Assembly (NCBI GenBank): GCA_017499595.2 | Contig: CM039010.1 | Span: 744,001-808,000, forward strand | Reading direction: 5' to 3' | Length of the DNA stretch: 64,000 nucleotides | Source: Psilocybe cubensis | Lineage: Eukaryota | Shown: positions 21,509-63,820 of the stretch, piece by piece | Numbering within the stretch: position 1 is the stretch's first letter | How the letters are laid out: each line of letters opens with the position of its first letter | Notes under the pieces: generated by a model | Seen by the model: only the letters and a program-made list of their open reading frames with translations | What the model was told of the DNA's origin: nothing | The model's database searches: none | Translations under genes and position numbers: made by a program

Positions 21509-24500
21509 TACCCCTCTGCAAGCGAAGTTTGGGGATCGAGATAGGGCGTAAAGATGAGCCCTATAGAGCTTCGTCGGCTGAGATATACGCTCTTTGGAGG
21601 TTTAAGAGACCAATCGCGGTCGGCGGTGGTGGGGGAAGAAGCTGGTTGAATTTGGAGAGCAATTCAACAACAATCAAAAATGAGAACGCGCGAGGTTGAA
21701 CGACCACGTGCTCGCATCACATCAAATAAGTTATTCTCACGGTCTGAGGCACGTCTCGCTTAACGCAAACCAACACTTGAGCTTCACGTTGGTTGTAGGT
21801 GCACTCCTGGGTGCTCCAGGTCCTGTATATATTGTGAGCTGAGTCTCACATTTTCTCAACTTAATTCATACTAACCAATGAGTTGTTCTTGTCCTTCTAC
21901 TAGTGCCTTCTCCTACTAATTAATCACGTCGCTTTGCCGTAAGGGCACTCTATTTCTTGATTATTACGCGACTTTCAACTATTTCTCTCAGTCGGCGACG
22001 CGAGTGAGTCTTTCCTAATTGCCCATGATATGTATATATTTCTGTATTTCTGACTCTTTTCAGTCCCTCACTGACACCTCGCACGACATAACTGGGTACG
22101 CAGTTTGTGCCCTGCCATGGCTTACGAAATGGACGGAGAGTTTGTTACTTGCAGCATCGATGACTTTATGTCGCATTACTTTGCTTTTGTGCCAGACAAA
22201 AACAATGTTACGAGATGCATACAGAAGCATCTAATGCCATTGGGCGTGGCATCCATGAACCAGTCTCAACTTGTATTTTCTGAGTTCCCCGACACCCATT
22301 TTATTGCCAATAACAGCATAGGCAAGGAAAATGAAATGGAAGTTTATGCACCGTTGGCCAGTATCGCTAAACACATTGGCAATTATGTGTACCAGCACCA
22401 GCCCGGCCTCGCAGGGCCGACCCCCATACGCAATAAATTCAACTACCGAAATATCCTACACTCCTCTATCACCTCTGACACACATGAATCAAATCAAGTC
22501 GACGCATGTTTCGCATCCAATCAGGATAATTCCTTCAGTACCTGGGCAACGGCTGTACCCATTGAACAAAAAGTCAAGGTCAACAATGATGAACAGCGAC
22601 TCGATGTAAGTCTGTTTCTCCAAGCTATTAACTGTACTCGCTGACTCAAGCCTCACAAATCCGTAGAATATAGACACGGTGCTTTCCGCCAATGCTCAGA
22701 TCATGAACGACGATGTCCGGCGCATGTTTACATATGGAGTGCGTCTCAATATATTTTCATGCATTATCTGTTCTCATTCGAATGTAGATGACTTTTGACG
22801 CAGACCAGGTAGTTCTCTGGTTTCATTGTCGGTCCCACTCCGCAGTTTCTCAACCATTCAGCTTTGTCAAGGTATGCATTCACACTTTATCCTACCCAAA
22901 GGCTGAACGCTGAACGAAAAACTCCACAGGATCCTGAAAGACTCATCAAAATCTTTATGTTTTTCCTCTTCGCAACTGAGGAGCAGCTTGGATACGATCC
23001 ATTGGTGGAACGCCAAGTCGATGGCCAATATATCTTTCGAATTCGCCATTCCAAGCCAAACTCTAACGATGCAGATGATTCTCGATTCTATCGTACTGTG
23101 AAAGTGCTCTCCGGCTACCGGTCCAACAATATCACTTGTCGAATGCCTCGAGTATGGACCGTTGAACGTTATAATCCAACTACTGGAAAAGCAATGCCGG
23201 GCAGCCTGCAGGTCCTGAAGGATGTCTGGATTGACCATACTGTTCAAACGGAACGGCAAATTCAAGAGGCAATTTTCAAAGCGATCAACAAATTTGGCGA
23301 CGAGGAGGCGCCTGAGCATCCTGACCTTAAAATCATCTGGGAGGAGCGAAGGGAGCTTATTCGATCCAGAGACTATCGAAGACTTTTCCTCACTATCGCA
23401 GACGACTATGAAGGTCAAAGGTCAAAAGTAATCGCACCTGAATCGCGCCGCATACGCGGCCTTTTCGACCCTATGAGAATCTATGACCAAGCAAATCAAA
23501 CACACAGAAAATCTGATGTTGAGCAATATTATGTGCCGAGGAAGCAGTATCGCGTTGTGTTTGAGGAGATTTGTCTGCCCATAAAATCACTGCCAACACT
23601 TGGAGATGCGCTCGATGTCATCCAGGACATTCATATCGGTCAGTATTTACGAATGGCCACGCTCTATAGCCCAATACTTATTTTTCGTCCTGTAATTACA
23701 GCGCTGCAACTAATGTACTGTGCTGGTTGGGTTCACCGAGATATCAGCGACGGCAATATTTTAGCCTGCCAAAAACAAGGATCTCAATCGCAATCCACGG
23801 TTTGGCAGGCCAAGCTCATGGACCTTGAATATGCGAGGCCGTTCCAGCGTCCTGACGAAGCTGTTGCTGATCCGACAACTGTAAGCGTTTCAAGCAATAG
23901 AAGTAAGATCCGGCTTTGCAAATCTAATATCTTGCTACCAGGGCACGCCTTTTTTCATGCCTGTGGAGATTCTCAACAAAGACTACTTTTATTATAAAGG
24001 ATTTGAGCACCCCGAATATGATTCTGATTACGAGGACGCCAGCGACAGCCGCGTTCCTGCAGCTCCTGCAGAAGATGACATTGTCACTCATAACTTCCAA
24101 CACGATTTAGAGTCGGTTTGGTGGCTCATTCTCTATCTCATTGTTTCTCGCGTCTTTATTCAACCCAACGAATACTGGGAAGGTCGCATTCTTGACAAAG
24201 AACAAGCCAACCGGTGGATCTCCGGTGTCTTTCAAAACTTGCTTGTTTTGTCGAAAGAGCGAAGCAGATGCTTCGTTCGCGGTTCCATCAAACAACAGAT
24301 TATGAATTTCACGCCCAATCATCTGAAAGATCTGGTCGACCGTCTGCAGCGCAACAAAGACGTTTTACTGTCATTTTATACCAACCGCGAGCGCAAGGAA
24401 CAAATATACGATCATGCCTCGTACGCGAGAGTTCATGTCAACTTCGGTAAATTTCTTGCATCCATTCAGAATATGGAGCCTAAGACCTGGCGTGAATACG

Positions 24501-24950
24501 TGCTCCCTTTCCCTGAGCCTACTCTATCCACTCAAACCGAGACCCCAGCTAATGCAGCTCCAGAAACCCCGGCTCCATAGCCCTCGACATATGCAACAAT
24601 TCCTCCGAGGGAGTATCTGTTCCGCCCCTCTAAAGTTAAGGCAAAACGAAGACCTGAAAACGAAGACCTGAAGAAAATTTCAACCGTGGTGGAGGATGAT
24701 CCAAGAAAGGTACTAAGAGGTCTCGCCATGGTCCCTAAAACTTAATTCAACCACTTTCCTCTCAACTTGCATTTCGAGGTAGATATCGCAGTGGCCAGCA
24801 AGCCATACCTCTTTTCAACTTGTTCGTTTTACCCCACTCCGTCCTCCCCAGTCTTGTAATTAATATCTAGCACATTTCTACTGTACATGTATCCCCACTA
24901 TTGTCTTCAGTGGCTTTCAAGCTCTCGTATCTTACCCGACAATCTCTATA
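21509..24950 (+). repeat. Segmental duplication unit containing K1. Its 5' part is repeated inverted at about 49550-51733.
   Basis: caagcgaagtttggggatcgagatagg...tttaagagaccaatcgcggtcggcggtggtggggg matches the reverse complement of 51600-51722. Confidence 0.85.
22117..24580 (+). CDS. Fungal-type protein kinase (FunK1/Pkinase_fungal), copy K1. The ancestral upstream exons are degenerate and the C-terminal tail is shortened.
   Basis: QIMNDDVRRMFTYG, WFHCRSH, FATEEQLGYDP, VLKDVW, KQYRVVFEE, GWVHRDISDGNIL, KLMDLEYA, GTPFFMPVEI, HNFQHDLESVWW. The first exon (ATG 21878) hits TAA after 13 codons. TAG at 24578 stands where K3 has CAG. Confidence 0.88.
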
Positions 24951-25208
24951 ACCAACGGTCGAACCATTGCGTTCGTGGTTTTCTCGCTTTCCTTGGCATA
25001 TCTGTTGTTACCCATATTGGGTCTAAATCCCGCAGGGATTTGTTTATGAACAATGGTGGTACCGTGGGAGCTTTGCAACGCCATCCCGTGAAAGTGAACC
25101 AACACGACTGAACTTCACTTTTAGCAAGTGGCATTACCCAGGTTTCTTTCAAGCGTAGATAATGTGAAGATTTTGCCTTACTTTTCTGTATCTGACCGGT
25201 TTCTTACT

Positions 25209-28200
25209 ATGTCCTTAGCTTTGCCTCCTTCTCCTTCTCCTTTTCCTTCTCCTGATCACTCCTGGGGCGCTGGTAGTGGCTCGGATATTGAACTTGCGTT
25301 AGTCTCATTAGATTTTTATGGAGGTTTATTGATTTATTAACCACGTTGCACAGTCCTTCTACGAGACCAATAGAGACATCTAAGTACGTAATTATCTATG
25401 TGATGTGATGCAGTCTCTTTCTTACACCACGTAAAGTGGCAACAGGAGGAGGCTCCAGCGAAGTCACAGACCTTCGAACTCAGATGGGTCACGAAATGGA
25501 CGGGGACTTTGTTACCTGCAGCATTGATAAATTCATGAGATGCTATCTGCCATTTCTCCCCCTCGACAACGACATCAACCGCTGTCTAGATGAGCATCTC
25601 ATTCCAGACAATATCATAACCAGGATTGTTGACAAAGCAGGACAGGAAAGTCTTCTGTTCACTGAGTTTCCAGATACTCCGGTCATCGTTGTCGGGAAGA
25701 AAAACGAAATGCAAATTTACTCACCATTGGCCGATATCGCCAAAAGCATAGGAAATTATTCATTCCAGGTACCTGCTGGCGAAAAACCACGCACGCGCAA
25801 CAGGTTCAATTATCGTAATGCGTACAACTCCACCATCAAGTCAGATATTGAAGGAAGTAATCACAAAAATGACGGCTGCTTCACATCGGACCCTGACAAC
25901 ATTTTAAGCACATGGGGTACAGCCGTACCCGTGGAGCAGCAGGTTAGGGCCAAACACGAGGATCGGCTTGATGTGGGTGGTTTGGCTTTGACTGCTGGGC
26001 TCTGTCACTCACGTAACATTGTATAGAATATTGAAAAGATATTGTCAGCCAATGTCCAAATAATGAATGACGACGTACGACGCATGTTCACTTACGGGGT
26101 AGGTCCATTACATTTGGTCAACTCAGAAACTGACTATATTTCTCTCAAGATTACGTTCGACGCGGATGAAATGAGACTCTGGTATCATTCCAGATCTCAC
26201 TCTGCGGTTTCGGTGCCATTCAACTTTGTGAAGGTCATTTCAGTTCATTCATCTGAAATCATCTAGTCTGGTATTAACCACTGTTGACAGGAACCTCTGA
26301 AACTTGTCAAAATCTTTATGTCGTTCCTCTTCGCCACCGATGTTGAACTTGGATACGATCCCATGGTTGAGCGCCAAGAAGACGGCCACTATATTTTCAA
26401 GATTCCACGGCCTAAACCCACTGAAAGCACAATATTGCCAAGCGGTGACGCTTCATCTTCCCACAGCGCGTCTTCATCTTTGGACAGCGTGTCTTCATCT
26501 TTGGACAACGCGTCTTCATCCTCGGACGACAATGCTCTGTCTACGGATAGCAATTTTCCATCCACGGACAGCGATTCTCATCCTATAGAGGAGCAATTAT
26601 CAGTGAAGGAACAGCAAGACGCACCTGACGACTATCAGTATTACCGCACTGTCAGGGTCTTGTCTTGCTACCGTTCCAACAAGATCTCGGGCCGGATGCC
26701 CAGAGTATGGGTAATTGAGCCCTACGATCCGGTGACGAAGAAAGTCATTCCAGGAGACCAATTGGTACTCAAGGACGTTTGGATCGAGAAGAGTGCTCAG
26801 ACCGAAAGGGTAATTCAAACTGCAATTTTTGAGGACATCAACAAGTTTGGCGATTGCAAGGCCCCTCCAACAACAGACCCCGCTCTTAAAATAATCTGGG
26901 AGCAGCTCAAAGATTCTATACAAAGTCGAGAATACAAGAAACTATTTCTCACTATCGAAAATGATTACACTGGTTTTACGTCGAAAAAGCCTGCCTCTGG
27001 TTCAAAGCGCATCTGGGGGCTGCATAAACCGGTCGAGACGTCGTATAAATCTACCGGAACGACCCTTCGCAAAGAAGCCGGGCAATCTCACCCCATTCCC
27101 GCCAGCACAGAGACGAATATACATCGTCCTTTTATTCCCAAAAAGCAATACCGAATAATTTATAAGGAAGTATGTCGCACTGTAGGGGAAATGCGAACAC
27201 TGGGAGAAGCCATTGACGTCCTCCAACATATTCATACTGGTAACCATCTGTCTTTTATCTCGATTCAAATTATATAGTCTGATTGATTGTATAGCATTGC
27301 AACTTTTTTACTGCGGTGGCTGGGTGCATAGAGATATAAGCGAGGGCAACATCTTAGCTTATCGACAGGATTTTGCAGATGACTCGAAGCCCTGGCAAGG
27401 CAAGTTGATGGATCTCGAATATGCACGCAGGTTTCCTCCGCAATTTGGAGACACACAGGAACCTAAAACAGTATGCCATACTTCACTCAACTAAATTAAC
27501 TTGCCATCTGACGCAGGTATTGGAAAGGGCACTCCTTTTTTTATGCCGACGGAAATTCTTTTCGAGAGATTTCTCCATCATCCTCTACCAGATAGGCTTG
27601 GAATCAGTAATCCTTACGATAACAATGACACAGAAGAAGAAACACTTGATGAAGCGCGACACTTAGTCCATCATTTCCACCACGATTTGGAGTCTCTATG
27701 GTGGCTCATACTTTATCTCATCACCTCCCATGTCGAAGACCAACCTGCGGCAAGTTGGCCAGACTCGAATGCGCAAGCTGCTGCAATTAATGCTTGCCGC
27801 ATTTGGATCAGGCGCATCTTTCAGAACACTATGCAACTTTCATCTGAGAGGCATGCCTGCTTCATCCAATCACCGAAAAAGAAACTGGTCGAGATATTGC
27901 CCAAATCAGTGGCTGTTCATGCGCGGCATATTGAGACACTGAGAAAGGACTTATTCGATTCCTGCATAGTGTGCGTGCGGAACAATCGTATCCTAGATCA
28001 CGACTTCTATGCCACGTTACATGTACGATCTGGTTGGTTCTTTACGACGTTACAAGGTTCAGAACAAAAGGATTGGCGGAACTATGTGATAAACCCCAAG
28101 GAAACGACACCTAATGCAAAGTCTCTCACGACATCGAGCAACCCAAGTAATGCCCCATCGGATCCAGGCATAAAGGTGGGACAGGGTGATACTCCCGCTG

Positions 28201-28400
28201 CAGGCTCGAAATCTCTTGCAGCCATCGACAGTGTTAATGCTAAGCAATCGGGTCAATTAAAGCCAGCTGGCATTCAATCTAAGGAATGTCTTCCTCGACC
28301 AGTCAAAATGCAACCACTAAAACGAGGGCCCGAGAAGAATCCCAATCTAAATCAAGGGAGGTCTAAAAATGATAGTAAACGAAGCCGACATGATTCTTAA
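25209..28400 (+). CDS. FunK1 protein kinase, copy K2 (most divergent)
   Basis: Same motifs (QIMNDDVRRMFTYG, LGYDP, SGRMPRVW, VLKDVW, HRDISEGNIL, MDLEYA, GTPFFMPTEI, HDLESLWW) and the same intron positions. The start is inferred from two small 5' exons. One inferred intron is only 30 nt, so the 5' end is uncertain. Confidence 0.88.
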
Positions 28401-28759: not shown

Positions 28760-29360
28760 ACCAGACTCGCCCAGCAGGAACTCGCACACTCAACAAGCCG
28801 TTACTCACCCGTTATTCAATGTGTGGTGCAAAATTTCAGCACGACGTGAAGTTCATCTGGGGCTACTTGTTTGGCTCATTATTTTTCATGTCAAAGATCA
28901 ACCCGAAGATCAGTGGCAAGGTCCAGTTACTTCTACTGAAGCAAAAAAAGAATCCAAAAACCTCATTCCAGTCTTCTAGAAGGTGTTCGACTACATTTCT
29001 GGAACAGAAAGGCATATTTTACTGGAGATAATCTTGGCATCGAGCTAAAGAGATTTTTGCCTTGTAATGTCTCCCTTCTTCCATATCCTTTCCATGTTCT
29101 CATAGCGTATATGAACAGCAAATATCCTGAGCAGGAGAAAGCTAGATCTAAAGGAAAAAAAGAATGTTATGCCAGTATTGACCGTCATCTTTGTATATTC
29201 CTCACAGATATACGTCAAACACGTCGATGGCGAAATTATGCTCTAAATCACCTCCAGTAAACGATGCCACAGACAATTATAACATACTGGCACCAATGGC
29301 CAGCGAAGAACGCAAAATGAACCGAGGTCCAGATCAAATCTTAAATGTAGATATAGAAAA
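28760..29360 (+). pseudogene. Degenerate relic of a FunK1 C-terminal exon
   Basis: FQHDVKFIW/xLLVWLIIFHVKDQPEDQW resembles K2 FHHDLESLWWLILYLITSHVEDQPAASW. CYASIDRHLCIFL..WRNYALN resembles FYATLHVRSGWFF..WRNYVIN. MNRGPDQILN resembles LKRGPEKNPN. Frameshifts and stops are present. Confidence 0.65.
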
Positions 29361-29592
29361 GACAATGGAAGTAACTTTTCTTGTAGACCGAAAGTACTAC
29401 TTTCGGTCTACAAGAAAAATTTAAAGTTCTGGTTGAATGAATTCATGCCCGCAAACCCTTCGGAGGCCCGACTGTTCAGAATACATGTGAAATATAAATA
29501 TACCGATGAGTCCAGACAGGACAATGTCGGAAGACAAGGATATTCTGTGAAGACAATGAAAGCGAATTGATGGGCTCTGCATGTTCGAATCT

Positions 29593-32500
29593 TGTTGGCC
29601 AGATTAGGAAGTTGCCCATGTGGGCTTGAATCGTGGGAACTTTGAAACACCATCCCGTGAACGCCAACCAACACAACTTCAACTTCGCGTTGTAGGTGCC
29701 TCCTCGGTGCCCCAGGTTCTGTGAAGGCATATAATGTGAGCTTAGTCCCAAATTCTATGTTCTTACCCATACTCACTGATGAGTTCTTCTCGTCCTTCCA
29801 CCCCACCCAACCCGGTACCTTCTACTACTAATGCCACTGTTGATGTCGCTTTGCCGTAAGGGTGCTGCACTTTTTTGGATTATCGCTCTACTGACACAGA
29901 ACAGACCTTCAGTTGTAGCCATCGATAAGCAACGCAAGTGAGTCTTTCGTGATTGCTCATACATATATTTGTCTGACTCTTTCTCAGTCCCTTTTTTACA
30001 CCCCGCAAGGCAGCAACTGCAGGAGGAACGAGCAAAGTTACGCAGCTTCGCACTGTCATGGCTTACGAAATGGAGGGAGAATTTATCACCTGCGGAATTG
30101 ACGACTTTATGTCACATTATTTCGCTTTTGTGCCCGACACAAACAATGTTACGAGATGCATACAGAGGCATCTGATTCCATCGGGCGTCGCCTACATAGA
30201 CAAATCTAAGCTTGTACTCTCAGAGTTCCCCGACACCCCTACTATTGACAAGGCCGTCCCAGGCAAGAAAAACGAAATGGAAGTTTTTGCACCGCTGGTC
30301 AATATTGCCAACAACATTGGCAAGTATGTGTACCAGCACCAGCCTGGCCTCGCAGGGCCGACCCCCATACGCAATAAGTTCAAGTACCGAAACGTCCCAT
30401 ACTCGTCCATCAGCTCTGACATACTTGGATCGAACCACAAAGTGGACGCGTGTTTCACATCCGATCACGATAATTTCTTGAGTACCTGGGGAACAGCTGT
30501 ATCTATTGAACAAAAGGTCAAGGTCAACAATGAACAACGACTCGATGTAAGTCTGTTTCTCAAAGCTATTAACCGAATCCGATGTATTAACTCCCACAAC
30601 TCTGTAGAATATGGAAAAGGTGCTTTCCGCCAATGTTCAGGTCATGAATGACGATGTCCGGCGCATGTTTACATACGGAGTGCGTCCCAATATATTTTCA
30701 TGCATTATCTGTTCTCATTCGAATGTAGATGACTTTTGACGCAGACCAGGTAGTTCTCTGGTTTCATTGTCGGTCCCACTCCGCAGTTTCTCAACCATTC
30801 AGCTTTGTGAAGGTATGCATTCACACTTTATTCTACCCAAAGGCTGAACGCTGAACGAAAAACTCCACAGGATCCTGAAAGACTCATCAAAATCTTTATG
30901 TTTTTCCTCTTCGCAACTGAGGAGCAGCTTGGATACGATCCATTGGTGGAACGCCAAGTCGATGGCCAATACATCTTTCGAATTCGCCATTCCAACCCAA
31001 ACTCTAACGATGCAGATGATTCTCGATTCTATCGTACTGTGAAGGTGCTCTCCGGCTACCGGTCCAACAATATCACTGGTCGAATGCCTCGAGTATGGAC
31101 CGTTGAACGTTATAATCCAACTACTGGAAAAGCAATGCCGGGCAGCCTGCAGGTCCTGAAGGATGTCTGGATCGACCATAATGCTCAAACGGAACGGCAA
31201 ATTCAAGAGGCGATCTTTGAAGCGATCAACAAATTTGGCGACCAGGAGGCACCTGAGCATCCTGACCTCAAAATCATTTGGGCACAGCGAAGGGAACTTA
31301 TTCAATCCCGAGACTATCAACGACTTTTCCTCACTATCGAAGATGACTATGACGGTAGACAGTCAAAAGTAATCGCCCCAGGGTCGCGCCGCATATGGGG
31401 TCTTTTCGACCCCGTTAGGACCTTTTACCAATCGCCAGGAACAAATTCTAGGCATGATACGGGGCACATTCGCCCGATTCATACATACAAAAAGACCAAT
31501 ATAGAGCGACATTACGTGCCCAAGAAGCAGTATCGAGTTGTATTCAAGGAGATTTGTCTGCCCATAGGATCATTGCCAACGCTTGGCGATGCGATGGATG
31601 TACTTCAGGACATTCATATCGGTCAGTATCTTTCAATCGCCACGGTCTACTGACCAATACTTATTTTTCATCCTGTAACTACAGCGCTGCAACTAATGTA
31701 CTGTGCTGGTTGGGTTCACCGAGATATCAGCGACGGCAATATTCTAGCCTGCAAAAAACAAGGATCTCAATCGCAATCTTCCACGATTTGGCAGGCCAAG
31801 CTCATGGACCTTGAATATGCGAGGCCGTTCCAGCGTCCTGACGAAGCTGCTGCTGATCCGAAAACTGTGAGCATTTCAAGTAATACTAAGATCCGGCCTT
31901 ACAAATCTAATATCTTGCTACCAGGGCACGCCCTTTTTCATGCCTATCGAGATTCTCAAGCAAGAATACTTTTATAGGAAAGGACTAGAGCAACCCGAAG
32001 ATGATGTTGATTATATTGCCTCCAGAGGCAGACGCCGTGCTGTAAAAGCTGCAAAAAATGACATTGTCACTCATAACTTCCAACACGATTTAGAGTCGGT
32101 GTGGTGGCTCATTCTCTATCTCATAGTCTCTCGCGTCTTTATTCAACCCCTCGAATACTGGGAAGGTCGCATTCTTGACGAAGGAAAAGCCGAGCGGTGG
32201 ATATCCAGCGTCTTTCAAAATCTGCTCCTTTTGTCGCAAGAGCGAAAGAGATGCTTCGATCTTGATGGCACCATCGAACAACAAATCATGGGCTTCACGC
32301 CCAATCATCTGGAAGGTCTGGTCGAAAGTCTAGAACTGAGCCAAACAGCTTTAATGTCTTTTTATCTTAACCGCGAGCGGAAGGAACAAATATACGATCA
32401 CGCCTCGTACGCCAGAGCTCATATCAACTTTGGTGAATTTCTTGAATCCGTTCAAACTCTGGAGCCTAAGACATGGCGCCAATATGTACTCCCTCTCTCT

Positions 32501-33013
32501 GACCCTATCATATCCACTCAAACCGACACCCCAGCCGACGCAGCTCCGGAAACCTCGGCTCCACAGCCCTCGACACATGCGACAATTCCTCCGAGGGAGT
32601 ATTTGTTCCGCCCCTCTAAAGTTAAGGCTAAACGAGGATCTGAAGAAAATCCCAACCGTGGTGCAGGAGGATCCAATAAAGGTGCTAAGAGATCTCGCAA
32701 TGGTGTCTGAGATTTAATTCAACGACTTTCCTCTCGACTTGGATTTCGAGGTAGATATCGCAGTGGCATGTAAGCTGCCTTGCCTCTTCCCAAGTTGTTC
32801 TTCTTCCCCTACTCCGTCCTCCCGAGTCTTGTACATATCTAGCACATTTCTGCGCTGCATGTATCCCCACGATTGTCTTTAGTGGCCTTTCAAGCTTTCA
32901 TATTTTTGATACACATATCCTGTCATCTCGTTACTTGCATGTAAACAAACGAATTTAACAAAGCGCGACCCTTGAAGCTTGACGGTTCAATGTTAAACGT
33001 TTAAGTTTAAATT
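29593..33013 (+). repeat. Segmental duplication unit containing K3. Its 5' part is repeated inverted at about 61700-63773 and its 3' part inverted at 47880-49530.
   Basis: tgttggccagattagga(a/g)gttgcccatgtggg matches the reverse complement of 63740-63773. tgacggttcaatgtt..aacgtt(t/c)aagtttaaatt matches the reverse complement of 47880-47920. Confidence 0.85.
29779..32710 (+). CDS. FunK1 protein kinase, copy K3 (appears fully intact)
   Basis: MSSSRPSTPPNP.. and two small exons splice in frame to MAYEMEGEF. All kinase motifs are present (TGRMPRVW, VLKDVW, HRDISDGN, DLEY, GTPFFMPIEI, HDLES), and it has the basic C-tail KGAKRSRNGV*. Confidence 0.9.
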
Positions 33014-33310
33014 CCTGTCTCGTGCGCCAGTGTCATGGTTGACGACAGCGAAGGTCCTCTGATATATTTTACTCATTCATCCGTTTGGCGCGTATAGGCG
33101 TATTTATTGTGATGTAGTAGACACTGGGCAGGAGGGCGATGTAGCATGCCCAGCACGGTAGTGGGGTGGTGCCAGACGTACTGGAAAACATAAAGTATAG
33201 TAATTAGAGTATATAGCGACAGGACCCTTAAACTAAAATACACCCAACCCCCAACCCACATACACATTCTAATCTAAATACTACCCTACCCCCTCGTCAC
33301 AGCAAACACC

Positions 33311-44311: not shown

Positions 44312-44357
<46 letters not shown>

Positions 44358-53103: not shown

Positions 53104-53786
53104 TCATAGGGCAAGGAGCGCGGTGAGACCTGCAGCGAACAGGCCGAACAGGGTGTTGGCGTTTGCGCCGTGCGAGGAGAGCGCGGCGGAGCTGGGCGAG
53201 GAGTTTGCGCCGGATGCGCTGGTCGACGCCGACGAGGAGGAAGATGAGGAGGAGGAAGAACTGCCGGACGTGGACGACGAAGAAGGCGCGGTGCTCGTCT
53301 CGGACGCAAACGTCGAAGTCAGCGTAACACCCTGCAATCAACACCAAAACCAGCATCATCAGCATTCAAGAACAAGAAAAACAAGCAAAGCGGGTAGCAC
53401 GCACAACTTTAAGGCACAAGCTCCGCGAGAACGCTAGCGCATCATCGAGGTCCTGGCCGGAGCACGCATTTTGTATGCACGTCGTCGTGCTGCTCACAAA
53501 TGCCTTGTTCGTGCAGAGGCAGTGGGTATCTGTCACGGTGACGCAGTCGCCCAGGTCGGGGTTCGCGACGCATGGCAGGGCGCAGGCTACGTAGTGGTGC
53601 ACGGAATAGATTGGTCGGTGCAGAGGCGGTGGTGGGAGTGGAGGTAGACGTTAGACACAGAGCGCACGGGAAAGGACAGAAAGAATACGCACTTGGATAG
53701 TTGCTCTGCCGCGCAAGGAGGTTGGCGTGGACGCCCGTCGTGGACGCTGCAACAGCAACAGTGGCCACGAGAGTGGAGAAACGCAT
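53104..53786 (-). CDS. Secreted/GPI-anchored CFEM-domain protein
   Basis: Signal peptide MRFSTLVATVAVAA, then the 8-Cys CFEM pattern CALPCV..GDC..TDTHCLCTNKAFV...TCIQNACSGQD....SLC, a Ser/Thr-rich stalk and a hydrophobic C-terminus (LFGLFAAGLTALLAL). Two introns. Confidence 0.9.
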
Positions 53787-54995
53787 GATATCAACAGCGA
53801 GGAATAGCAGCGAAGCGTTTGACGAAGGCGATGGGAAAAAGGATAAAAGCAACGCAAAAAATATTCAACACGCTGCTCGCACTTTATATGACCGACCTCG
53901 GGGGTGCTCACGATAGGACGCGATGGGTGGGACTGAGATATAAACAGATTTATATAAACCCAGGGTGTGTGTGGGTGTACCCTTATAGCATCCATACGGT
54001 ACCTGATCAGAAGTCCCGTCTTGGTTCTTGATGATGGGAAAGATTGCGATTTCACCGATGGCCAACACACCCATACAGTCCACACCACACTCCAGCCAAA
54101 CGGTGCCGAGTTCTGGTCAGAAAAATCCTTGTTTGATGGCGGAGTGACAGTGCTCTCACGCAAACGAGGAGTAAGATGCAAAGTTGGGAGACCTCTCTTA
54201 CAGGCAGAATGACCATGGCCAAGAACGTCCAGAACCATAGCAGACCCAGCATAGAAGCCTCATGCCGCGTCGCTCGCGGAGGAGCGTGCTCCATATGGTA
54301 TCAGCATTGTGCTGTTGAACTCGTGAAAGGCGTCTCTGGGGAAAGGGGAACAGGGAACGGAGGCGTAGAAACAGTGATACGCCAAGGGTTTCAACCTTGT
54401 AAAAAAGTGAAGGGGAGGATTGGGGTGTATGTAATTTCCAGGTCTGTTCGACAGAAAAGATCAACGGTGATCATGATGCAATTTAGAGGAGTTGGGAAAT
54501 GATTGAGAAATGCGATGCGTATCAGTGGATATCATTGGTGGCGTTTATTGGATCGCTGACGGCTGAAGGGAAAATCAACATGTGTATCTCATAGAAGCTT
54601 AGAGCAATGTCAAGCGTTATCTGCACATACCGAAGGTAAAACGTTGTTGGCTTGCACGGAAATTCGAATAGGTTCTAAGTTCAAGGTGAACGCTGGACGT
54701 TGCTGGACGACGCAAGAAGTTCGGGCGATGTGAAAATTCCCGGCGGTTCGGCTATGGTTTCGATGAAGCCGGAGTTATGTAATTCGCACCCCTAAACGCT
54801 CTTGTAGGCGCCGTAACCTCTACCATTGCGAAAACGATTGCAAATATAGTCAAAATAGAACATTGTTAAGTATGCCACTGAAACGAAGTAGGTAGTGAGG
54901 TAGGGGGTATATGCAAAGGAAAACAAGCCGACCAACATGATGTGGGTATCCCGAAAGCAACGAAAACATTACGATCCTTACTAAAAGTACGATTT

Positions 54996-56771
54996 CTACA
55001 AACAATCCGAGTCTTCGGTGTCCAAATCAGCTCTGTGACACTCGTCCTTAAATGGTGCGTAGTATGCCTGCCGTAGGTTGAGGATGAGTCGTGGTCCAGC
55101 AATTCCAGGCCAGAATACGCAGATGAGGTAAACAATTTGAAAGATCGGGCCGAACTAGCAATGGAAGAGCGCCTTAAGTCTTCCGCAGAGTACTTGAAAT
55201 GTAAATCGTACTTACGGGCGCGCGTAGCAGGAGAACGAGGCACGCGAATAGTATCACCAGAGTTCTAGCAAAATAAAATGAGAAATTAATGGTTGAGACA
55301 AGAGAAAAGACGTACACGAACGGGATCATGATACTGTCCCGAAATAGAATACTAGCGAGTGAGCGACGACCCCGGAATGACCACGATATCCTCCTCTGTG
55401 CTTGGTAAAAGTGAAATCCTCGCGAAATGGTCAAGCACAGTAGAGTTAGTTCAAGTGCAATTATTGGGATGGTTTCGGCGTAAAGATAATTATACCCCGG
55501 GGATGTGATGCATATGTGAATACCAGGGATGGGATCCGGCACATCTGAAAAAAGTCTTATTAGTTTCCTTAAGAGCGAGCATGTAGACTTACTTACTATT
55601 GGCTGACACGTCATATATTATCTTTACCACGAAGAGTATGATCATTTCAAGAACACAACTAGTTGCCAGAAAAACGACAATTTTCCGACTATGATGATAC
55701 ATGCACAATATGCGGCATACCATGATACCTTCAAACAAAACATTAGCGCAGGAACCAAACCAAAAGAAATGTCTTAAAAATACCGTGCATGGAAACGAAA
55801 GGAATGACTGCAATGTATGTTTCCGCATCAAAAAAGAGTTCCGATTTACCGCCTGTTGAACGGGGATGATTCGTTCAATGGTCAAACAGATGTACAAACT
55901 CGGCCTTACAGCTGCGCAAAATGGAATGTACATGTTAGGTCAAAATTGCTAAAGAAGCGTAGTTTTTGTTCTTGGCAGAACAAAGCTCACCTCTGTCCGC
56001 CGGAGGGAAGTGAATGAACAACTGAATAAGTACATCAAAGTAGACATAAAATATTGAAAAGTTTGTACCTTTACTGAGTATAATGAATGTCCCGAAATAG
56101 CTTTGTGCGACGTTAATAATGAGACACTTCTTTTGAGGAACAGTCTTTTGCTGCATACCAAATGCGTAGAAGCAATATCTTATAACAAGAGCGGCTCTTT
56201 CAGTCGATGATAGCAGAGAAGGCTGTCTGTCTCTCACATTTGATTACAAAGGCCCATATAACGAGTCTAGTGGGAGATGCCGTACGTCAGCCAATTGAAA
56301 CCAAACCTTACAGAGCGATTGCTTACAATCACAAAAAGAACTTTAGGGATATTCCAACCGGCTTTGCGTCTCTAAAGTCCGCATCATATCAGCGCTGCAT
56401 AGCACCTGAGAGACAGCTTGAAAACTTACCCAAATTAGGTCTACCTATTGATGAGACGTCCAGAATTTTAATATCACAAGTGCCCGCCTAGTCAAGCGCT
56501 TTTTCACGCGGCCAATGGAGTTGAAAAACGAACCTCGTCCGAAAATGTGGCAACTGGTGTAGAAAAAACAGTTTATGATAAACTTAACTCCAGCGCACAA
56601 CTTCGAGGACAGAAGAGACGTACTTTGTTCATAAAGATGACAGGTTAAGGTTGCCGCTGAATGTGTCACCTGGCGCTCAGAGCTGACCTTGGCATACGAG
56701 ACTACTGACGTACCTGCCACATACCCGTGCGCCTGGCTTCGCAACAGCAACGTCGTCGTCTTGCTATCCAT
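54996..56771 (-). CDS. DUF6533-type multi-pass (GPCR-like) membrane protein, many small exons
   Basis: MDSKTTTLLLRSQAHGYVA start, hydrophobic exons, GIMVCRILCMY, PIIALELTLLCLT, LASILFRDSIMIPF and the family-typical final exon GPRLILNLRQAY...CL*. Exon boundaries are not all resolved. Confidence 0.65.
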
Positions 56772-58048
56772 CTTCCAAGGTTGTAGTCACGAGGGATGGA
56801 AGGAGAAGAGTCAACCCGCAGGCGCTGCTGAAGGCATCAACAGGCGCGTCGTACGAGTGGGGGATACCGACGGCACCATTTCGTTTGTGGTATCCTATTA
56901 ATATAGGAGTCGGCAATCTGGTGCTCAACCCTGGAGGATAACGTGAAGGCGAGGTTTGCGACTAGCCGACGGTGATGTGCTTTTACGTAGAATCGAAGAA
57001 CGGCGTCCGTGTATGCACGCTAAATTGAACAGGCCGAATTGCAAAAAAAAAATGTATCGAGCTGTTTAGGAGTGGGAACGCGATTAGGGTGCCAATGTAC
57101 GGGAGCCGACTGAGAGGGCTCACAAAGCTTTCGGAGAGTTCAACAGACGTTGAGTACATTTCGCCGACGAAAGTGGGCCTAAATCACGCATATAGGCTGT
57201 CGCATGATCGCAAAATTCTTCTAGGAGAAAAAACTGATACGGTATAGAATTTAACAGGTTGAATGGAAGAATAACGTACTCTGGGATTGCATTATCGCAA
57301 CGCAGTGGATAAGACTCATATAAGCGCTCCATTATGAAAGAATATAACGCATATATGTGCGTCAGAGACATGAAACACTCTGGTACCATAGCAAGTTCAT
57401 GATTCGCGGTTGTTGCGGGGCAAAACTCTGAGCTGAAGAAATCAATCCATATATTTGTCACTTATACTAATAGTTATACAAGCCACTTACCCAGTAAAAC
57501 CACGCGCTATACTAGCTCGATGGGTGATGGCAAAGATAATACTTGATTTTGGAATATAAACCAAAAAGGACCAGCCGAAACTACCAATAAGTACTACTCA
57601 AGTACTACAGTTACAAGTTGAAGCGAGGTCAAGGCAGTCGGTGGTGGCTGGCTGGCTGATCGTGAGAATTTTGCGCTATGTCTAGACTCGATTACTAATC
57701 AATATAATCTCTGTTAAAAATTTGACACCGCACCGATGTCTCCTGAGTCCGTTGCCCGTGGGGTTTCCTCATTACGAACCAATTACGAACATAGCACAGC
57801 TTCCAATGTACCTTACCTTGGAGTGGGATACTCTACCTGTCATGACTATTCCGACATGTTCGACGAACATTGACGCGTCCGCTTGAAACCGAATCGAGGT
57901 CGAAAACTATTCGCCGCTGGAGAGTCCTGGACCTTGGATTGACACTGTCAACGGTTTTACAGTACGCATACAGCAGTCAATGTCATTTTATGCCCTTAAT
58001 ATGCTTAAAACGGTTCAGCCACACTCGCAGCTGGTCCCATACAATAAA

Positions 58049-60293
58049 ATGGCTCACAGCGCTTGAAGAATGGTTTTCAAGGAACACCCATCCATTATCC
58101 TACTCTGTACAACCCCATGGATTCTTATTTACATCCAAGTGTATCTCCTACTGCCAAGGAGACGACCTTGAATGGTCCGGAGCATCGTTCCAGCGCATAC
58201 GAGATGCAATTCCAGCATCAAACGCGTCCTTCTCGCAAAGGAGTGTCCCTCAGAACCTGTATGGCGGCGTCATTCATCATCGCCAGCATCTTCGGCATGA
58301 CCGCAATACTGTTATCTTATCTGTGCGCTTTACACCAGTGCCAAATTTCGCGTCGATCCGTCATTAGTACAGCACCCCTCGGCAAGGTGCTGACTATAAC
58401 ACAGGTAACGTCTCAAATAGCTCCGGTGTCCACTCCAATCATCATGGGGCTATTGTCGTACCTTCTGTCTGTAAAATGGCTACGCTCCAGCGGGCAAAAT
58501 GGTGGGCGCAATAGACCCACTCCAATGCAGTAAGTCTGCACTTGATTTTGCAATCTAACCCGGCGACTGGACTTATGACTACTTTCAGGCTAGGTCTTTT
58601 AATGTCTATCTGTAGTGGTGCCAACATTGGATCTTTATTCTCTTCTATGAAATATCTAGTAATCAAACCTGCGATGAAGAATTCCGTTGATCGCGTTGCA
58701 CCTGCACCTATTCTTCGACAGTCAATCTTCGCTCTAGGTTCGCTCTTGGTCATTTCATACGTCGCTTCTGGGGCCGATGCTTGGCTTCATGCCAGCAGCA
58801 CAAGTGTGCTTATCACATCAATGTCTCCATATACTTCATCGACACCTTCTAACTTCGGTCGTGAGATCAACGCAACAATGTGCCAAATAGCTACCGCCCG
58901 CAATGATTCTACATGTGGAATAATCGGCACCGGGAGCGCTGGCACTGGAATTACTCTTTCTGAGGGGCTCAGAGTCATCTCTAATACCTCGAGCCTCCAC
59001 CGAGTTGTTTTCACTGATGACCAGACTGCCATATTAGTGCCTCAAACTTTGCCCCCGAACATCACATATACCTCACGGACTCTGGGGGTTAAATCTCAAT
59101 GTACTTCGTACGTTTCCTTTGATCGATTAATTGTAAGATTCAAGATCTCATCAGTTTGGGATCTAAGGATTACGAAGTACTGTATATTCAAAGACGGGGT
59201 ATTGGGATACGGTCCTCAGGCAAAGTTGAACCTAAACTGCGCGGATGCTGGAATCAAGTATGTAAACTCAACGGGGGTTTCTGGCTTGTGTCCGATAGAT
59301 AATCAAGGGTTATGCACCTCTGCTACCGGAATTCCATCCAAGTATGTTTATCCGAAACCCGTTTCTTTGGTCGTGGGACTCATATAGCTTTATTTTTACA
59401 AGTCCTTTTACGACGGGTGAAGTGGCCATTTCATTTGCGTATATAAATTTCGATCAACCAACGGATATATGTAGGTATTGCGTTCTATATTTCTTCGTGC
59501 GATATACTGATCAGAAATAGTTGTTGGAAATACGTTTGTGCAGACATGCATCCAGCAATCTACCATTCTCTGACGTCTTCCCTATGATTTAGGGGCTGGT
59601 TTGCGCACGGCAATAACGGAGCATGGAACGTCATATTTTGTAATGTTACTGCGTTGGATATCACCTATACATATACGTCGACCCGCTTTCTGCAACAAAG
59701 TACCAGCCCTATTTCTGTATCGGACACACGGTACATGATGATCGCCGGGTTTTATAACGGTGAAACCCTCATATCAACAGCCGTCAACGGAGCGGGCTTG
59801 GAAGCTAGTACGACTTATGAGCAAGCGTACTCTAACGAACTCTCGCGGCAGATGCTGGCTCGAGGAGCAATCATATACCAACCCAAAGACGTTATCAGGA
59901 TTGAATCTGAAAATACAGCAGTCGGTTCGAATTTACAAGTGATACCTCTCGCACTCTTCATCGCTGCTTTACTCTTGTTCTCGTACGTACATTGGCTGTA
60001 ACATGTGTCGTAAAGTCACTGAAGACCCTTTTATCATTTAAAGCTGCCAAACCTTGTGGATTACGGTGAGAGTTATCATCGCTACGTGGAATATGGATTA
60101 TGTAGAACTGGCGGCATTGTATATTCAAAATCCTTTGGTGGTAGTGCAAAGCCTGTATGGACGACCAGATCCCACTCTGACTTGGGATACGGATGTGGCG
60201 AAGAGGTTTGGAACCGAGACAGATAGGGATCGCTTGAACATAGGGCCGGCGTATAACGAATTTGGTTCAGTTTTCATTGTGTCAAGAAACTAA
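58049..60293 (+). CDS. Uncharacterised multi-pass membrane protein M2, paralogue of M1. The start codon is uncertain (58049 with a 1-nt frameshift, or 58117).
   Basis: STAPLGKVLTITQVTSQ..RPTPMQ | LLMSICSGAN..ADAWLHASS..FGREINATMC..DDQTAILVP..TLGVKSQC | YGPQAKLNLNC | GWFAHGNNGAWNVIFCN..LQVIPLALF. The exon structure matches M1. Confidence 0.8.
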
Positions 60294-60826
60294 ATCGCCA
60301 GAAACTATAGTGTTAGTGTACATATATCCGATGAAGCTTGAAGCTTGAAGCTTGACGCTGGGTTGTTTACACCGCACATTTTCTCTGGGTGTTGCTCAAG
60401 TGTTGCTTTGTTAAGTTGGCTTGTTCACATGCTGGTAACGAGATGATAGTATATTTGTATCTGAGATACGAGAGCTTGAAAAACTACTAAAGACAATAAT
60501 GTGGATATAGATGCAGAAAAAAATGTGTTAGATATGTACACAGTAAAAAGCCGGGAAGGAAAGACCGAGTGAAGAAAACAAGTTGCAAATAAGTGGCTTA
60601 ATGTCTACTGCGATATCTACCTCGAAATCCAAGTCGAGAGGAAAGTCGTTGAATTAAATTTCAGAGACCATTGCGAGATCTCTTATTACCTTTATTGGAT
60701 CCTCCTGCACCACGGTTGGGATTTTCTTCAGATCCTCGTTTAGTCTTAACTTTAGAGGGGCGAAACAAATACTCCCTGGGAGGAATTGTCGCATGTGTCG
60801 AGGGCTGCGGAGCCGGGTTTCTGGAG

Positions 60827-63313
60827 CTACATAGCTGGAGCTTCAATTTGAGTGGATGGAGAAGGTTCTGGTAAATGGAGCACATATTGACGCCAGGTCT
60901 TAGGCTCCGAAATCTGAACGGATTCAAGGAAAAGACCAAAGTCAATATGAGCTTGCGCGTATGAGGCGTGATCGTATATTTGTTCCCTCCGCTCGCGGTT
61001 GACATAAGACGACAGTAAAACTGTTTGGTTTCGTTGGAGACGTTGGACCAGATCTTTAAGATGATTCGGCGTGAAGCGCATAATTTGGCGTTCGATGGAC
61101 CCATAAAAGGAGAAGGCGCTCTCTCGATCATCCGCCAACTCAAGGGAGTTTTGAAAGACGCCGGATATCCACCGCTCGGCTTCTTCTTTGTCGAGAATAC
61201 GACCATCCCAGTATTCGTCGGATTGAATAAAGACGCGAGAAACTATGAGATAAAGGATGAGCCACCACACCGACTCTAAATCGTGTTGGTAGTTATGAAT
61301 GACGAAGCGATGTTCTGCAGCAAGGCGGCCACTGTCAACGACGGTGCTAACAACCTCGTAATGACCTTGTAATTGGAGAAAGTCAAGTCCTTGATTAAAA
61401 AGGTATCTCTTACGAAGAATTTCAACAGGCATAAAATACGGTGTTCCCTGGTAGCAAGATATCAGATTTGCAAAACCGAATCTTAGTATTGGTTAAACGC
61501 TTACAGTCTTCGGATCAGCAGCAGCCTCGTCAGGACGCTGGAACGGCGTCGCATATTCAAGGTCGATGAGCTTTGCCTGCCAAATCTTTAAAGGTTGCGA
61601 ATCAGATCCTTCTGTTTTGCAGGCTAGGATATTGCCGTCGCTGATATCTCGGTGAACCCAACCAGCACAGTACATTAGTTGCAGCGCTGTAGTCAAAAGA
61701 CAGTAAAATAAGTACTGTTCTGTAGACCGTGGCAATTGATAGATACTGACCGATATGAATGTCCTGAATTACATCCATCGCATCTCCAAGCGTTGGCAAT
61801 GATCCTATGGGAAGACAAATCTCCTTAAATACAACCCGATACTGCTTCTTGGGCACATAATGTCGCTCTATATTGGGCTTATTGTATGTATGAATTGCGC
61901 GAATCTGCCCCGTATCATGCCTAGAATTTGTTCCTGACGATTGGTAAAACGTCCTTATAGGGTCAAACAGACCCCATATGCGGCGGGACCCTGGGGCGAT
62001 TACTTTTGACTGTCTACCGTCATAATCATCTTCGATAGTGAGGAAAAGTCGTTGATAGTCTCGAGATCGAATAAGTTCCCTTCGCATCTCCCAGATCATT
62101 TTGAGGTCAGGATGTTCAGGTGGTTTGTCGTCGCCAAATTTATTGATCGCTTCGAACATCGCCTCTTGAATTTGTCGTTCCGTTTGAGCAGTATGGTCAA
62201 TCCAGACATCCTTCAGAACCTGCAAGTCACCCGGAATTACATTTCCAGTAGTTGGATTGTACCGTTCAACGGTCCATACTCGAGGCATTCGGCCCGTAAT
62301 ATTGTTGGAGCGATAGCCGGAGAGCATCTTCACAGTGCGATAGAATCGAGAATTATCTGCAGCGTTAGAGTTTGGGTTGGAATGGCAGATCTGGAAGATG
62401 TATTGGCCATCGCCTTGGCGTTCCACCATTGGATCATATCCCAGCTGCTCTTCAGTTGCGAAGAGGAAAAACATAAAGATTTTAACAAGTTTTTCAGGCT
62501 CCTGTGGAGTTTTTCGTTCATCGTTCAGCTTTTGGTAGGAAAAAGTATGAATATATACCTCGACGAAGCTGAATGATTGAGAAACCGCGGAATGGGATCG
62601 ACAATGATACCAGAGAACTACCTGGTCTGCGTCAAAAGTCATCTACATTCGAATGAGAACAGATAATGCATGAAAATATATTGAGACGTACTCCAAATGT
62701 AAACATGCGCCGGACATCGTCGTTCATGACCTGAACATTGGCGGAAAGCACCTTTTCCATATTCTACAGAGTTGTGGGAGTTAATACATTGTATTCAGTT
62801 AATAGTTTAGAGAAACAGACTTACATCGAGTCGTTGTTCATTGTTGACCTTGACCTTTTGTTCAATAGATACAGCTGTTCCCCAGGTACTCAAGAAATTA
62901 GCTTGATCGGATGTGAAACACGCGCCGACTTTGTGGTTCAATCCAAGTATGTCGAAGCTGATGGACGAGCATGGGACGTTTCGGTACTTGAACTTATTGC
63001 GTATGGGGGTCGGCCCTGCGAGGCCAGGCTGGTACTGGTAAGCATACTTGCCAATGTTGTTGGCAATATTGACCAGCGGTGCAAAAACTTCCATTTCGTT
63101 TTTCTTGCCTGGTACGGCCTTGTCAATAGTAGGGGTGTCGGGGAACTTTGAGAGTACAAGCTTAGATTTGTCCATGTAGGCGACGCCCGATGGAATCAGA
63201 TGCCTCTGTATGCATCTCATCACATTGTTTGTGTCGGGCACAAAAGCGAAATAATGCGACATAAAGTCGTCAATTCCGCAGGTGACAAATTCTCCATCCA
63301 TCTCGTAAGCCAT
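60827..63313 (-). CDS. FunK1 protein kinase, copy K5 (5' and middle K3-like, distinct C-lobe). The C-tail is frameshifted.
   Basis: TGRMPRVW, VLKDVW, HRDISDGN, IDLEYA, GTPYFMPVEI, HNYQHDLESVWW. Upstream exons from ATG 63588 are K3-like but appear out of frame. The basic tail is encoded in another frame (ORF 60661-61206). Confidence 0.85.
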
Positions 63314-63820
63314 GACAGTGCAATGCTGTGTAACTTTACTCGTTCCTCCTCCAGTTACGGTCTTGCGAGGTGTAATAGGCTAAGAAAGAGATAGACAAAT
63401 ATATGTATGAGTAATCACAAAAGACTCACTTGCGTTTCTGATCGGTAGGAGCAACTGAAGGTCTGCGCTGTGTCAGTAGAGCGATAATCCAAAAAAGTGC
63501 AGCACCCTTACGGCAAAGCGACATCAACAGTGGCATTAGTAGTAGAAGGTACCGGGTTGGGTGGGGTGGAAGGACGAGAAGAACTCATCAGTGAGTATGG
63601 GTAAGAACATAGAATTTGGGACTAAGCTCACATTATATACCTTTACAGAACCTGGGCACCGAAGAGGCACCTACAACGCGAAGGTCAAGTCGTGTTGGTT
63701 GGCGTTCACGGGACGGTGTTCAAAAGTTCCCACGATTCAAACCCACATGGGCAACCTCCTAATCTGGCCAACATGATTTTGTTGGCATTGACATGGACAC
63801 TTTGTGCAAACGCTTCAATA

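Follow-up and report, generated by a model that had tools for sequence, protein, structure and literature searches.

The window analysed here is a stretch of 64,000 nucleotides from Psilocybe cubensis (GenBank assembly GCA_017499595.2, contig CM039010.1, positions 744,001 to 808,000 of the forward strand), and all coordinates below are positions within it. It contains five genes of the FunK1 kinase family (Pfam PF17667), named K1 to K5, and the analyses confirmed that four of them (K1, K3, K4 and K5) are true mosaics of one another. Open reading frame (ORF) pieces of 5/5 loci matched PF17667, and the full proteins of K1, K4, K3 and K5 (P0001-P0004, in that order) scored 106-146 bits against a gathering cut-off of 24.1. 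The products of K1, K2, K3, K4 and K5 are P. cubensis JR316_0012973, 12974, 12975, 12979 and 12983, respectively. K1, K2 and K3 are encoded on the + strand, K4 and K5 on the - strand.

Comparison of the window with itself (self-BLASTN) delimited four full-length units of about 3.3 kb, 78.3-87.4% identical in pairs, each consisting of the gene flanked by 350-620 bp on its 5' side and about 350 bp on its 3' side. These units are K1 (21498-24933, + strand), with an alpha-type front; K3 (29588-32964, +), with a beta-type front and middle, which holds both of the recent tracts described below; K4 (48271-51743, -), with an alpha-type front; and K5 (60405-63778, -), of beta type throughout. The limits that an earlier note on this DNA had set for the array, 21878 and 63588, coincide with the ATG codons of exon 0 in K1 and K5. 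The fifth gene, K2 (25484-28400, +), matched the other four copies in pieces, at about 65-67% identity; this older FunK1 paralog (about 65% alike) served as the outgroup.

A protein search with the central exon of K1 returned 99 matches at E<=1e-10 within its reach, 98 with fungal names and one without a name, as expected of a family confined to fungi. The top five were P. cubensis JR316_0012973, 12979, 12975, 12983 and 12974, and the next was a P. cyanescens protein, about 50% identical. The FunK1 subfamily in the array is young and species-restricted.

The gene models used here had six exons and five GT-AG introns of 49-64 nt. The K1 coding sequence (CDS) comprises exons at 22117-22605, 22667-22738, 22788-22871, 22930-23638, 23702-23880 and 23942-24577 (introns of 49-63 nt), followed by TAG at 24578-24580; the K2 exons are at 25484-25972, 26027-26098, 26150-26233, 26291-27239, 27295-27470 and 27528-28397. 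The CDS of K3 spans 30058-32707 (stop 32708-32710), that of K4 51110-48491 (stop 48490-48488) and that of K5, counted from its MAYEM start, 63313 to 60830 (stop 60829-60827), with the upstream exon 0 ATG at 63588. The translated models of K1 (723 aa) and K4 (776 aa) were letter-identical to the deposited P0001 and P0002, and the K5 model (732 aa) was an exact suffix of the deposited P0004. The deposited K3 protein, P0003, lacks the 28-residue exon 3 (30729-30812) and has a doubtful upstream start frame; in the DNA this exon is intact, with GT-AG introns on either side. The deposited K2 protein, P0007 (832 aa), has the HRD/catalytic-loop region spliced out (27186-27491). The K2 DNA retains an intact catalytic-loop exon (27295-27470), encoding ALQLFYCGGWVHRDISEGNIL, and the K2 model used here (880 aa) has in common with P0007 the first 508 and the last 324 residues. 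K2 also carries a Ser/Asp-rich insert of about 64 residues, absent from the other four copies, within which lies a 21-nt tandem repeat of 3.7 copies (26451-26527).

Mosaic structure of K1, K3, K4 and K5

Sliding-window identity was calculated on a four-way MAFFT alignment of K1, K3, K4 and K5, and every pairing stated in the earlier note was reproduced. The promoter/5' flank and the N-terminal exon pair K1 with K4 and K3 with K5: exon 1 was identical at 448/486 and 469/489 positions, respectively, and cross pairs were 81.5-84.2% identical. Further downstream, K1 and K3 are nearly identical over a central tract that includes introns; its approximate position in the earlier note (22740-23220 and 30680-31160) was refined to 22747-23231 in K1 and 30688-31172 in K3 (both +; 479/485 identical). 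This tract, named S2, takes in some of intron 2, all of exon 3 and intron 3, and 302 nt at the start of exon 4, reaching into the N-lobe up to the beta3 lysine motif VLKDVW, and the other pairs were 86.0-89.9% identical across it. Over the next 0.5 kb or so, which holds an indel block of 42 nt (14 aa) that groups K1/K4 against K3/K5 in the alignments, identity was 89.6% for K1-K4 and 90.7% for K3-K5.

Within the catalytic-loop exon, a short patch, S4 (K1 23697-23795 = K3 31680-31778, +), again joins K1 with K3 (97/99) and K4 with K5 (96/99). The C-lobe and 3' flank then pair K3 with K4 (786/795 identical in the core, 272/284 in the 3' untranslated region (UTR)), K1 and K5 being distinct: from the activation segment onward, these two were 77-84% identical to K3/K4 and to each other. 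The K3-K4 tract, S5, extends over 31834-32919 in K3 (+) and 48271-49376 in K4 (-), and takes in the last part of exon 5 as well as intron 5 and exon 6, continuing through the 3' UTR until the homology ends. The tail-coding patch at 32564-32764 (+) is much the same in K3, K4 and K5 (K3-K5 194/201, K3-K4 197/201), possibly owing to a further, older exchange.

The homologous core contained 290 informative four-taxon sites, divided into 188 for K1K4|K3K5, 32 for K1K3|K4K5 and 70 for K1K5|K3K4. Topology switched 21 times along these sites, against 147.7±6.7 times in shuffled data (10,000 shuffles, minimum 119). Penalised segmentation gave five blocks, S1-S5, in which the prevailing tree was supported by 154/157, 18/21, 30/31, 11/12 and 65/69 sites, with at least four changes of tree along the gene. 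A single tree did not fit all blocks: the approximately unbiased (AU) test rejected both alternative trees in each of them (S1, p<1e-41; S2, p=0.003 and 0.011; S3, p<1e-60; S4, p=0.002 and 1e-5; S5, p<3e-5), the weakest p being 0.011. When the tree was free to differ between these five partitions, the fit gained 93 log-likelihood units.

The recent tracts, about 0.49 kb for K1=K3 and 0.8-1.1 kb for K3=K4, are each 1.1-1.2% diverged. Their edges fall within the coding blocks of highest conservation, namely the exon with the MNDD motif, the stretch after VLKDVW and the surroundings of HRD/DLE; in K4 numbering, the S1|S2 edge is at about 166-186 (MNDD exon), the end of S2 at about 315 and the S4|S5 edge at 483-501 (DLE). 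Synonymous divergence (dS) between K3 and K4 was 0.008 in the C-terminal module (C module) versus 0.39 in exon 1, and between K1 and K3 it was 0.06 in the centre versus 0.43 in exon 1. Silent sites and introns are included in the tracts (introns 2 and 3 in S2, intron 5 and the 3' UTR in S5). Because dS drops with the mosaic and introns and UTR lie within the tracts, the near identity does not come from selective constraint.

Near-identical repeats of 0.5-1.1 kb are of the type that polishing can homogenise, and assembly or polishing may produce falsely identical stretches by mixing paralogous reads. The comparison with independent reads covered one copy (K3), mainly with short contigs. Such an artefact is nevertheless extremely improbable as the source of the mosaics. 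Every copy has unique flanks and single-copy neighbours, and copy-specific differences persist inside the tracts (6 and 9 substitutions and one 3-nt indel; the indels are in-frame). The same copy-specific letters were also found in contigs from three other sequencing runs belonging to three studies (X2, X5 and X6): on K3, their variant letters were those of K5 in the 5' part, of K1 in the centre and of K4 in the C module. Zero-difference contigs of X5 and X6 over 30971-31334/31338 span the right edge of S2, and run X2 had the K1 letters at 30996, 31044 and 31078. For K4, 62-90% of the sampled words were present in 7 runs from 3 studies. A published P. cubensis assembly, possibly but not necessarily the source of the window, was made with HiFi reads of N50 13.9 kb, according to the portion of its report that was available (PMC8220353).

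Some points weigh against accepting the mosaics as they stand. The segments used in the AU tests were picked from the same data, a weakness of which the permutation test is free. The contigs on K3 were short (178-575 bases among the 24 pieces listed of 136) and none links the whole gene, and the source strain may be closely related to X2, X5 and X6. In the raw-read run X12 (Illumina, labelled as the same species; compared over 29300-33300), no reads of at least 97% identity covered 30372-31845 or the unique flanks of K3, which suggests that the array is divergent or differently composed in that isolate. X12 also displayed C-module differences that are fixed, among them those at 32034, 32140 and 32173.

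Mechanism and direction of exchange

Ordinary, homology-dependent ectopic gene conversion is the probable origin of the mosaics. The earlier note had proposed repeated gene conversion or ectopic crossover as the source of new combinations of N-terminal domain and C-lobe; of these, conversion agrees with the clustered changes of tree and with the non-reciprocal, near-identical tracts. The events were non-reciprocal, since the two copies of each pair carry the same sequence (K3=K4 at 786 of 795 positions, K1=K3 at 479 of 485). Exchange took place between the direct copies K1 and K3, 8 kb apart, with the intervening genes undisturbed, and between the convergent, inverted copies K3 and K4, 15.6 kb apart, with no rearrangement of the housekeeping genes between them. 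The longest exact matches were 139 nt for K1-K3, 214 nt for K3-K4 and 171 nt for K3-K5, and at most 15 nt between K2 and any copy. K2 lies between K1 and K3 yet, being about 65% alike, has taken no part; exchange was confined to copies that are about 80% alike or more.

The alpha (K1, K4) and beta (K3, K5) lineages would have arisen by duplication of the gene-sized unit of about 3.3 kb. Breaks in one copy would then have been repaired from a template copy lying 8-16 kb off along the chromosome; the repair pathway, for example synthesis-dependent strand annealing (SDSA), is one that we infer. The outcome is patchwork genes with new combinations of N-terminal part, core and C-terminal part, probably as a by-product of similarity and not of a dedicated system.

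Crossing-over within a tandem array is the classic origin of front/back chimeras, and reciprocal ectopic crossovers (unequal between direct copies, with inversion between inverted copies) could in principle have built those seen here. S5 reaches the end of the homology, so that diverged flanking DNA cannot be shown on its 3' edge, and a two-by-two pattern in a second, tandem array (described below) is compatible with unequal crossing-over. Reciprocal exchange, however, would swap parts, and here the partners carry identical sequence. S2 and S4 are internal patches, bounded at either end by diverged DNA; S5 alone extends to the end of the duplicated unit. A crossover between the convergent copies K3 and K4 over 15.6 kb would invert and swap sequence, not duplicate it, and one between K1 and K3 would delete or duplicate K2, which is single. 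Crossovers are therefore a very unlikely source of the chimeras. Copies borne by transposons were also considered and were rejected: no consistent terminal repeats were found at the unit ends, and there was no transposase or reverse transcriptase (RT) among 130 ORFs.

Under gene conversion, the direction of transfer can be approached from the outgroups. The 14-aa block, the basic C-terminal tail and the upstream TPRK..GGTSK stretch all occur in both K2 and P. cyanescens; the beta form (K3, K5) is therefore ancestral-like and the alpha form (K1, K4) derived. The 42-nt block that encodes the 14 residues lies at 31432-31473 in K3 (+) and at 61940-61899 in K5 (alignments, P0006). It is present in K3, K5, K2 and P. 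cyanescens, absent in K1 and K4, and falls in a predicted disordered loop. Its loss from K1/K4, a deletion of 14 aa, is derived and sets the alpha type apart.

Codon trees of the five segments were built with FastTree and rooted with K2. In the C module, K3/K4 stood beside K1, with K5 outside. A protein tree with three outgroups also placed the K3/K4 C module with K1 (support 0.92). Among derived states of the K3/K4 C module, 24 were common to K1 versus 12 to K5 (63 versus 38 when unpolarised), and C-module dS was 0.32 for K1-K3/4 versus 0.53-0.55 for K5-K3/4. These four results point to K4 as the likely donor of the C module and K3 as its recipient, so that S5 was probably transferred from K4 to K3 and K3 would be a K5-like front with a K4-derived back. 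K4 had previously been described as a K1-like front joined to a K3-like back: the joined pattern is present, and the polarity implied by that description is probably the reverse of the actual one.

For the K1/K3 exchange, codon and protein trees disagree on the direction, and derived-state counts were 6 versus 9. S2 and S4 may be one discontinuous K1/K3 event that was interrupted around the 42-nt heterology. The dS of the backbone pairs is uneven (0.07 to 0.31 for K3-K5, 0.17 to 0.39 for K1-K4), which suggests older exchanges. The exchange network consists of K1-K3 and K3-K4, and probably of K3-K5 and K1-K4. An external donor for the C modules of K1 and K5 was sought among 104 FunK1 proteins and rejected: the nearest sequences were the other three copies, at 60-70%, and the next were at 34% or less.

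Textbook cases of interlocus gene conversion include the globin, opsin and heat-shock gene pairs. The P. cubensis copies resemble them in their patches of near identity within diverged paralogs, in the inclusion of introns and silent sites and in the lack of reciprocity. The tracts measure from some hundreds of bases up to around 1 kb, are restricted to similar copies and have their edges in conserved blocks. In contrast with those pairs, four dispersed copies in both orientations are involved here, with housekeeping genes between them.

Lineage-specific FunK1 expansions were reportedly described by Stajich et al. in 2010. No report was found in the literature searched on FunK1 together with gene conversion, and nothing on exchange between copies was found in the portions available of the literature that names PF17667. 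The array is thus a new example of a known process, in a family for which no earlier report was found. In the accessible parts of two studies, FunK1 is described as undergoing lineage-specific duplication and expansion, its function being unknown (Desjardins et al. 2011, PMC3203195; Krizsán et al., 10.1101/349894), and the latter counts it among the largest mushroom kinase families, at 4-33% of the kinomes of six species. Those parts concern the same PF17667 family and its species-restricted bursts of duplication; they describe duplication and expansion, whereas exchange between copies is described here.

Protein modules, selection and a second array

K1, K3, K4 and K5 carry VLKD (beta3 Lys), (T/S)ERQIQ (alphaC Glu), HRDISDGN and DLEYA, and K2 carries HRDISEGN and DLEYA, so that the beta3 Lys, the alphaC Glu, HRD..N and the DLE aspartate are retained in all five genes. 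The catalytic columns were invariant or at least 90% conserved among 68 homologs. The residues expected of an active protein kinase are thus present in the FunK1 copies.

An AlphaFold2 (AF2) model of K4, made with 68 sequences, had a mean predicted local distance difference test score (pLDDT) of 81.8 and a predicted template modelling score (pTM) of 0.83; it predicts an N-terminal region that is well folded, along with a kinase core and a C lobe built of helices. The low-confidence parts were residues 399-410 and 534-549 (both pLDDT<50) and 707-776, which correspond to the site of the alpha/beta indel, the most variable loop and the basic tail, respectively. The best Foldseek matches of this model were the ordinary protein kinases SRPK1/2, VRK2, TTBK1 and CaMKII (probability 1.00; template modelling (TM) score by target 0.38-0.55), in keeping with a protein-kinase fold. 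In a profile comparison with kinases of the PDB, the match was confined to the catalytic loop and the activation segment, and no solved FunK1 structure was found. A search with the N-terminal 165 residues retrieved fungal clusters only, some of them FunK1. The Pfam scan of 8/8 proteins detected PF17667 and PF00069 only, with no NACHT/NB-ARC, HET or repeat domain. No repeat array was found in the four mosaic genes, the repeats seen being a 14-nt duplication in K1 and the 21-nt repeat of K2.

Both ends of the protein are damaged in some of the copies. K1 has TAG at 24578-24580 (+) for the CAG of K3/K4, which removes the conserved basic C-terminal tail (KRG..NPN..KRSR), and K5 has two 1-nt gaps relative to K3/K4 at 60815-60833 (-), a frameshift that ends the protein ahead of the conserved tail. 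Just 3' of the premature TAG in K1, a perfect 14-nt tandem duplication (AAAACGAAGACCTG x2) is located at 24643-24670, in a region that corresponds to tail-coding sequence in K3 and K4. The exon 0 region (21878-22060 in K1, 29780-29960 in K3, 51360-51170 in K4 and 63588-63400 in K5) encodes MSSSRPSTPP..., a mini-exon and the conserved TPRK..GGTSK, and is intact in K5 only: K3 has an in-frame TAA in the mini-exon, and K1 and K4 have frameshifting deletions of 11 nt and 5 nt, respectively. None of the four copies has both the N-terminal exon 0 extension and the conserved C-terminal tail intact. The loss of the tail in K1 and K5, together with the broken exon 0 in K1, K3 and K4, looks like relaxed constraint.

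The array had been likened in the earlier note to immune or non-self recognition clusters, as a possible diversification system. This likeness was unsupported: the ratio of nonsynonymous to synonymous divergence (dN/dS) was below 1, the events were homogenising and NACHT/NB-ARC or repeat domains were lacking. Whole-gene dN/dS was 0.28-0.40, and every segment was below 1 for diverged pairs. Sliding comparisons of nonsynonymous and synonymous differences per site (pN/pS) with Fisher tests gave nothing robust for positive selection among the 4-5 sequences. The recent events cut diversity: K3 probably lost its former C module to overwriting. So far, no result indicates a dedicated system for generating diversity.

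A protein-level quartet test of clustered incongruence was applied to other young FunK1 sets. A second P. cubensis array, JR316_0001354-1374 on another contig, displayed strong clustered incongruence at the protein level, with 24/35 quartets at the lowest attainable p (0.0005). Its four adjacent genes JR316_0001356, 1357, 1358 and 1359 (P0100/P0027, P0028, P0034 and P0037) have a core that is about 90% alike, between two very different N types and two C types. In the N part, 1356 resembled 1358 (72-100%) and 1357 resembled 1359 (67-98%), with cross pairs at 35-80%; in the C part, 1356 resembled 1357 (85-100%) and 1358 resembled 1359 (79-100%), with cross pairs at 9-90%. The switch lies in the VLKDVW region, and the C types part directly after DLE. 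Among older sets, 0/15 P. cyanescens quartets reached p<0.01 and T. calospora gave 0/1; the Pleurotus sets were not clean, as strains were mixed in them.

Three findings speak for something beyond a by-product of similarity. Between positions 606 and 660 of the alignment, a disordered loop, pN exceeded pS for K1 versus K3/K4 (30.8/100 versus 3.2/26), in this stretch only; the one-sided nominal p was 0.043, and the choice of the loop was post hoc. Protein change in the C module was 3-4 times that of the core (dN 0.19-0.25 versus 0.055-0.077). Finally, JR316_0001356-1359 show all 4/4 combinations of N and C type, which may reflect selection for combinations. With 4-5 sequences, site-wise tests for positive selection have no power.

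On this basis, FunK1 arrays could be recombining repertoires under selection for modular diversification, with the catalytic core as the crossover zone and new combinations serving, for instance, to recognise non-self, competitors or effector targets, although we judge this unlikely. The more specific form of the proposal makes the beta3-lysine and HRD/DLE core a recombination hinge, with folded N-terminal and substrate-side C-terminal modules reassorted between neighbours and the combinations kept by selection for recognition or substrate diversity; for this, too, the chances seem small. In both arrays the edges do fall within the conserved core, past VLKDVW and near DLE; the C module evolves fastest, and the two most variable blocks of the protein are predicted surface loops in the model (K4 399-410 and 534-549). 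The reads of X12 suggest that isolates differ in array content. No segment, however, had dN/dS>1, the sole stretch with pN>pS was nominal and post hoc, and both recent events in the window lowered diversity. PF17667 and PF00069 were the only domains, the copies are set among housekeeping genes, and tails (K1, K5) and exon 0 (K1, K3, K4) have been lost or broken. The silence of older paralogs, such as the P. cyanescens quartets, is expected if exchange tracks similarity. The second array is known from proteins alone, and conversion of the core between old paralogs gives the same picture.

The NLR (nucleotide-binding leucine-rich repeat)/R-gene clusters of plants and the vertebrate major histocompatibility complex (MHC) and killer-cell immunoglobulin-like receptor (KIR) families combine positive selection on recognition surfaces with high allelic diversity. 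The FunK1 copies resemble them in being clustered paralogs, with chimeras and new front/back combinations, but differ in their dN/dS of 0.28-0.40 and in having no recognition-type domain. The HNWD/NLR genes of Podospora, the nearest fungal parallel, are a family in which recombination among members reshuffles parts, as in FunK1. In the available part of the report on them, they are described with WD, ANK and TPR repeats, concerted evolution together with shuffling, and diversifying selection, and PKinase appears in the list of N-terminal domains that fungal NLRs carry (Dyrka et al. 2014, PMC4986451). By the same account, HNWD genes have highly conserved internal repeats, are polymorphic in repeat number and contain positions under positive selection; the FunK1 genes, unlike them, have no nucleotide-binding oligomerization domain (NOD), repeat array or such selection signal.

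These results provide a concrete modular map of FunK1 in three parts: the N-terminal module, the catalytic core, and the C-terminal module on the substrate side, whose tail is disordered. Within this one species, the exchange edges of both arrays fall on shared conserved motifs. Recombination must be taken into account whenever FunK1 genes are used for phylogenies, orthology calls or tests of selection. If the modules were indeed selected for new combinations, FunK1 would be a candidate recognition repertoire, akin to innate-immune and non-self families. As matters stand, the window offers a clean, well-quantified case of ordinary gene conversion, of moderate interest.

Surroundings of the kinase genes

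The neighbours of the kinase copies are single-copy housekeeping genes (BCAS3-like, Nop53, RPN7, a Notchless-like NLE/WD40 gene and Pex3). A Pfam scan of the 130 ORFs outside the kinases detected housekeeping families only and no transposase or RT family, and no consistent terminal inverted, direct or long terminal repeats were found at the ends of the four units. No additional FunK1 fragments or pseudogene donors were found in the window (1/37 matches lay outside the five loci and was weak), and 0/10 antisense ORFs within the kinase genes had a Pfam match. Rfam and tRNA scans of the window returned a single tRNA-Ala(TGC), at 11636-11720 (-), distant from the kinases.

A short upstream element is common to K2, K3 and K5 (25063-25167, 29632-29686 and 63628-63734; 73-84% identity) and sits at, or just 5' of, the start of exon 0. 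Compared with K3 and K5, the 3' flank of K4 has an insertion of some 280 bp (47990-48270), which contains exact direct repeats of 27 nt (x2) and 22 nt (x2), and beyond it homology to the K3/K5 flank picks up again (47879-47990). In the 8-kb interval between K4 and K5 (52000-60300) there are several ORFs, 110-290 codons long, all of which lack a Pfam match; at 52-58 kb the A-over-T skew is marked. Elsewhere in the window, an open frame of 1055 codons without a Pfam match lies on the - strand at 16681-19845, and an 82-nt tandem repeat of 2 copies, 84% alike, is located at 6097-6261.

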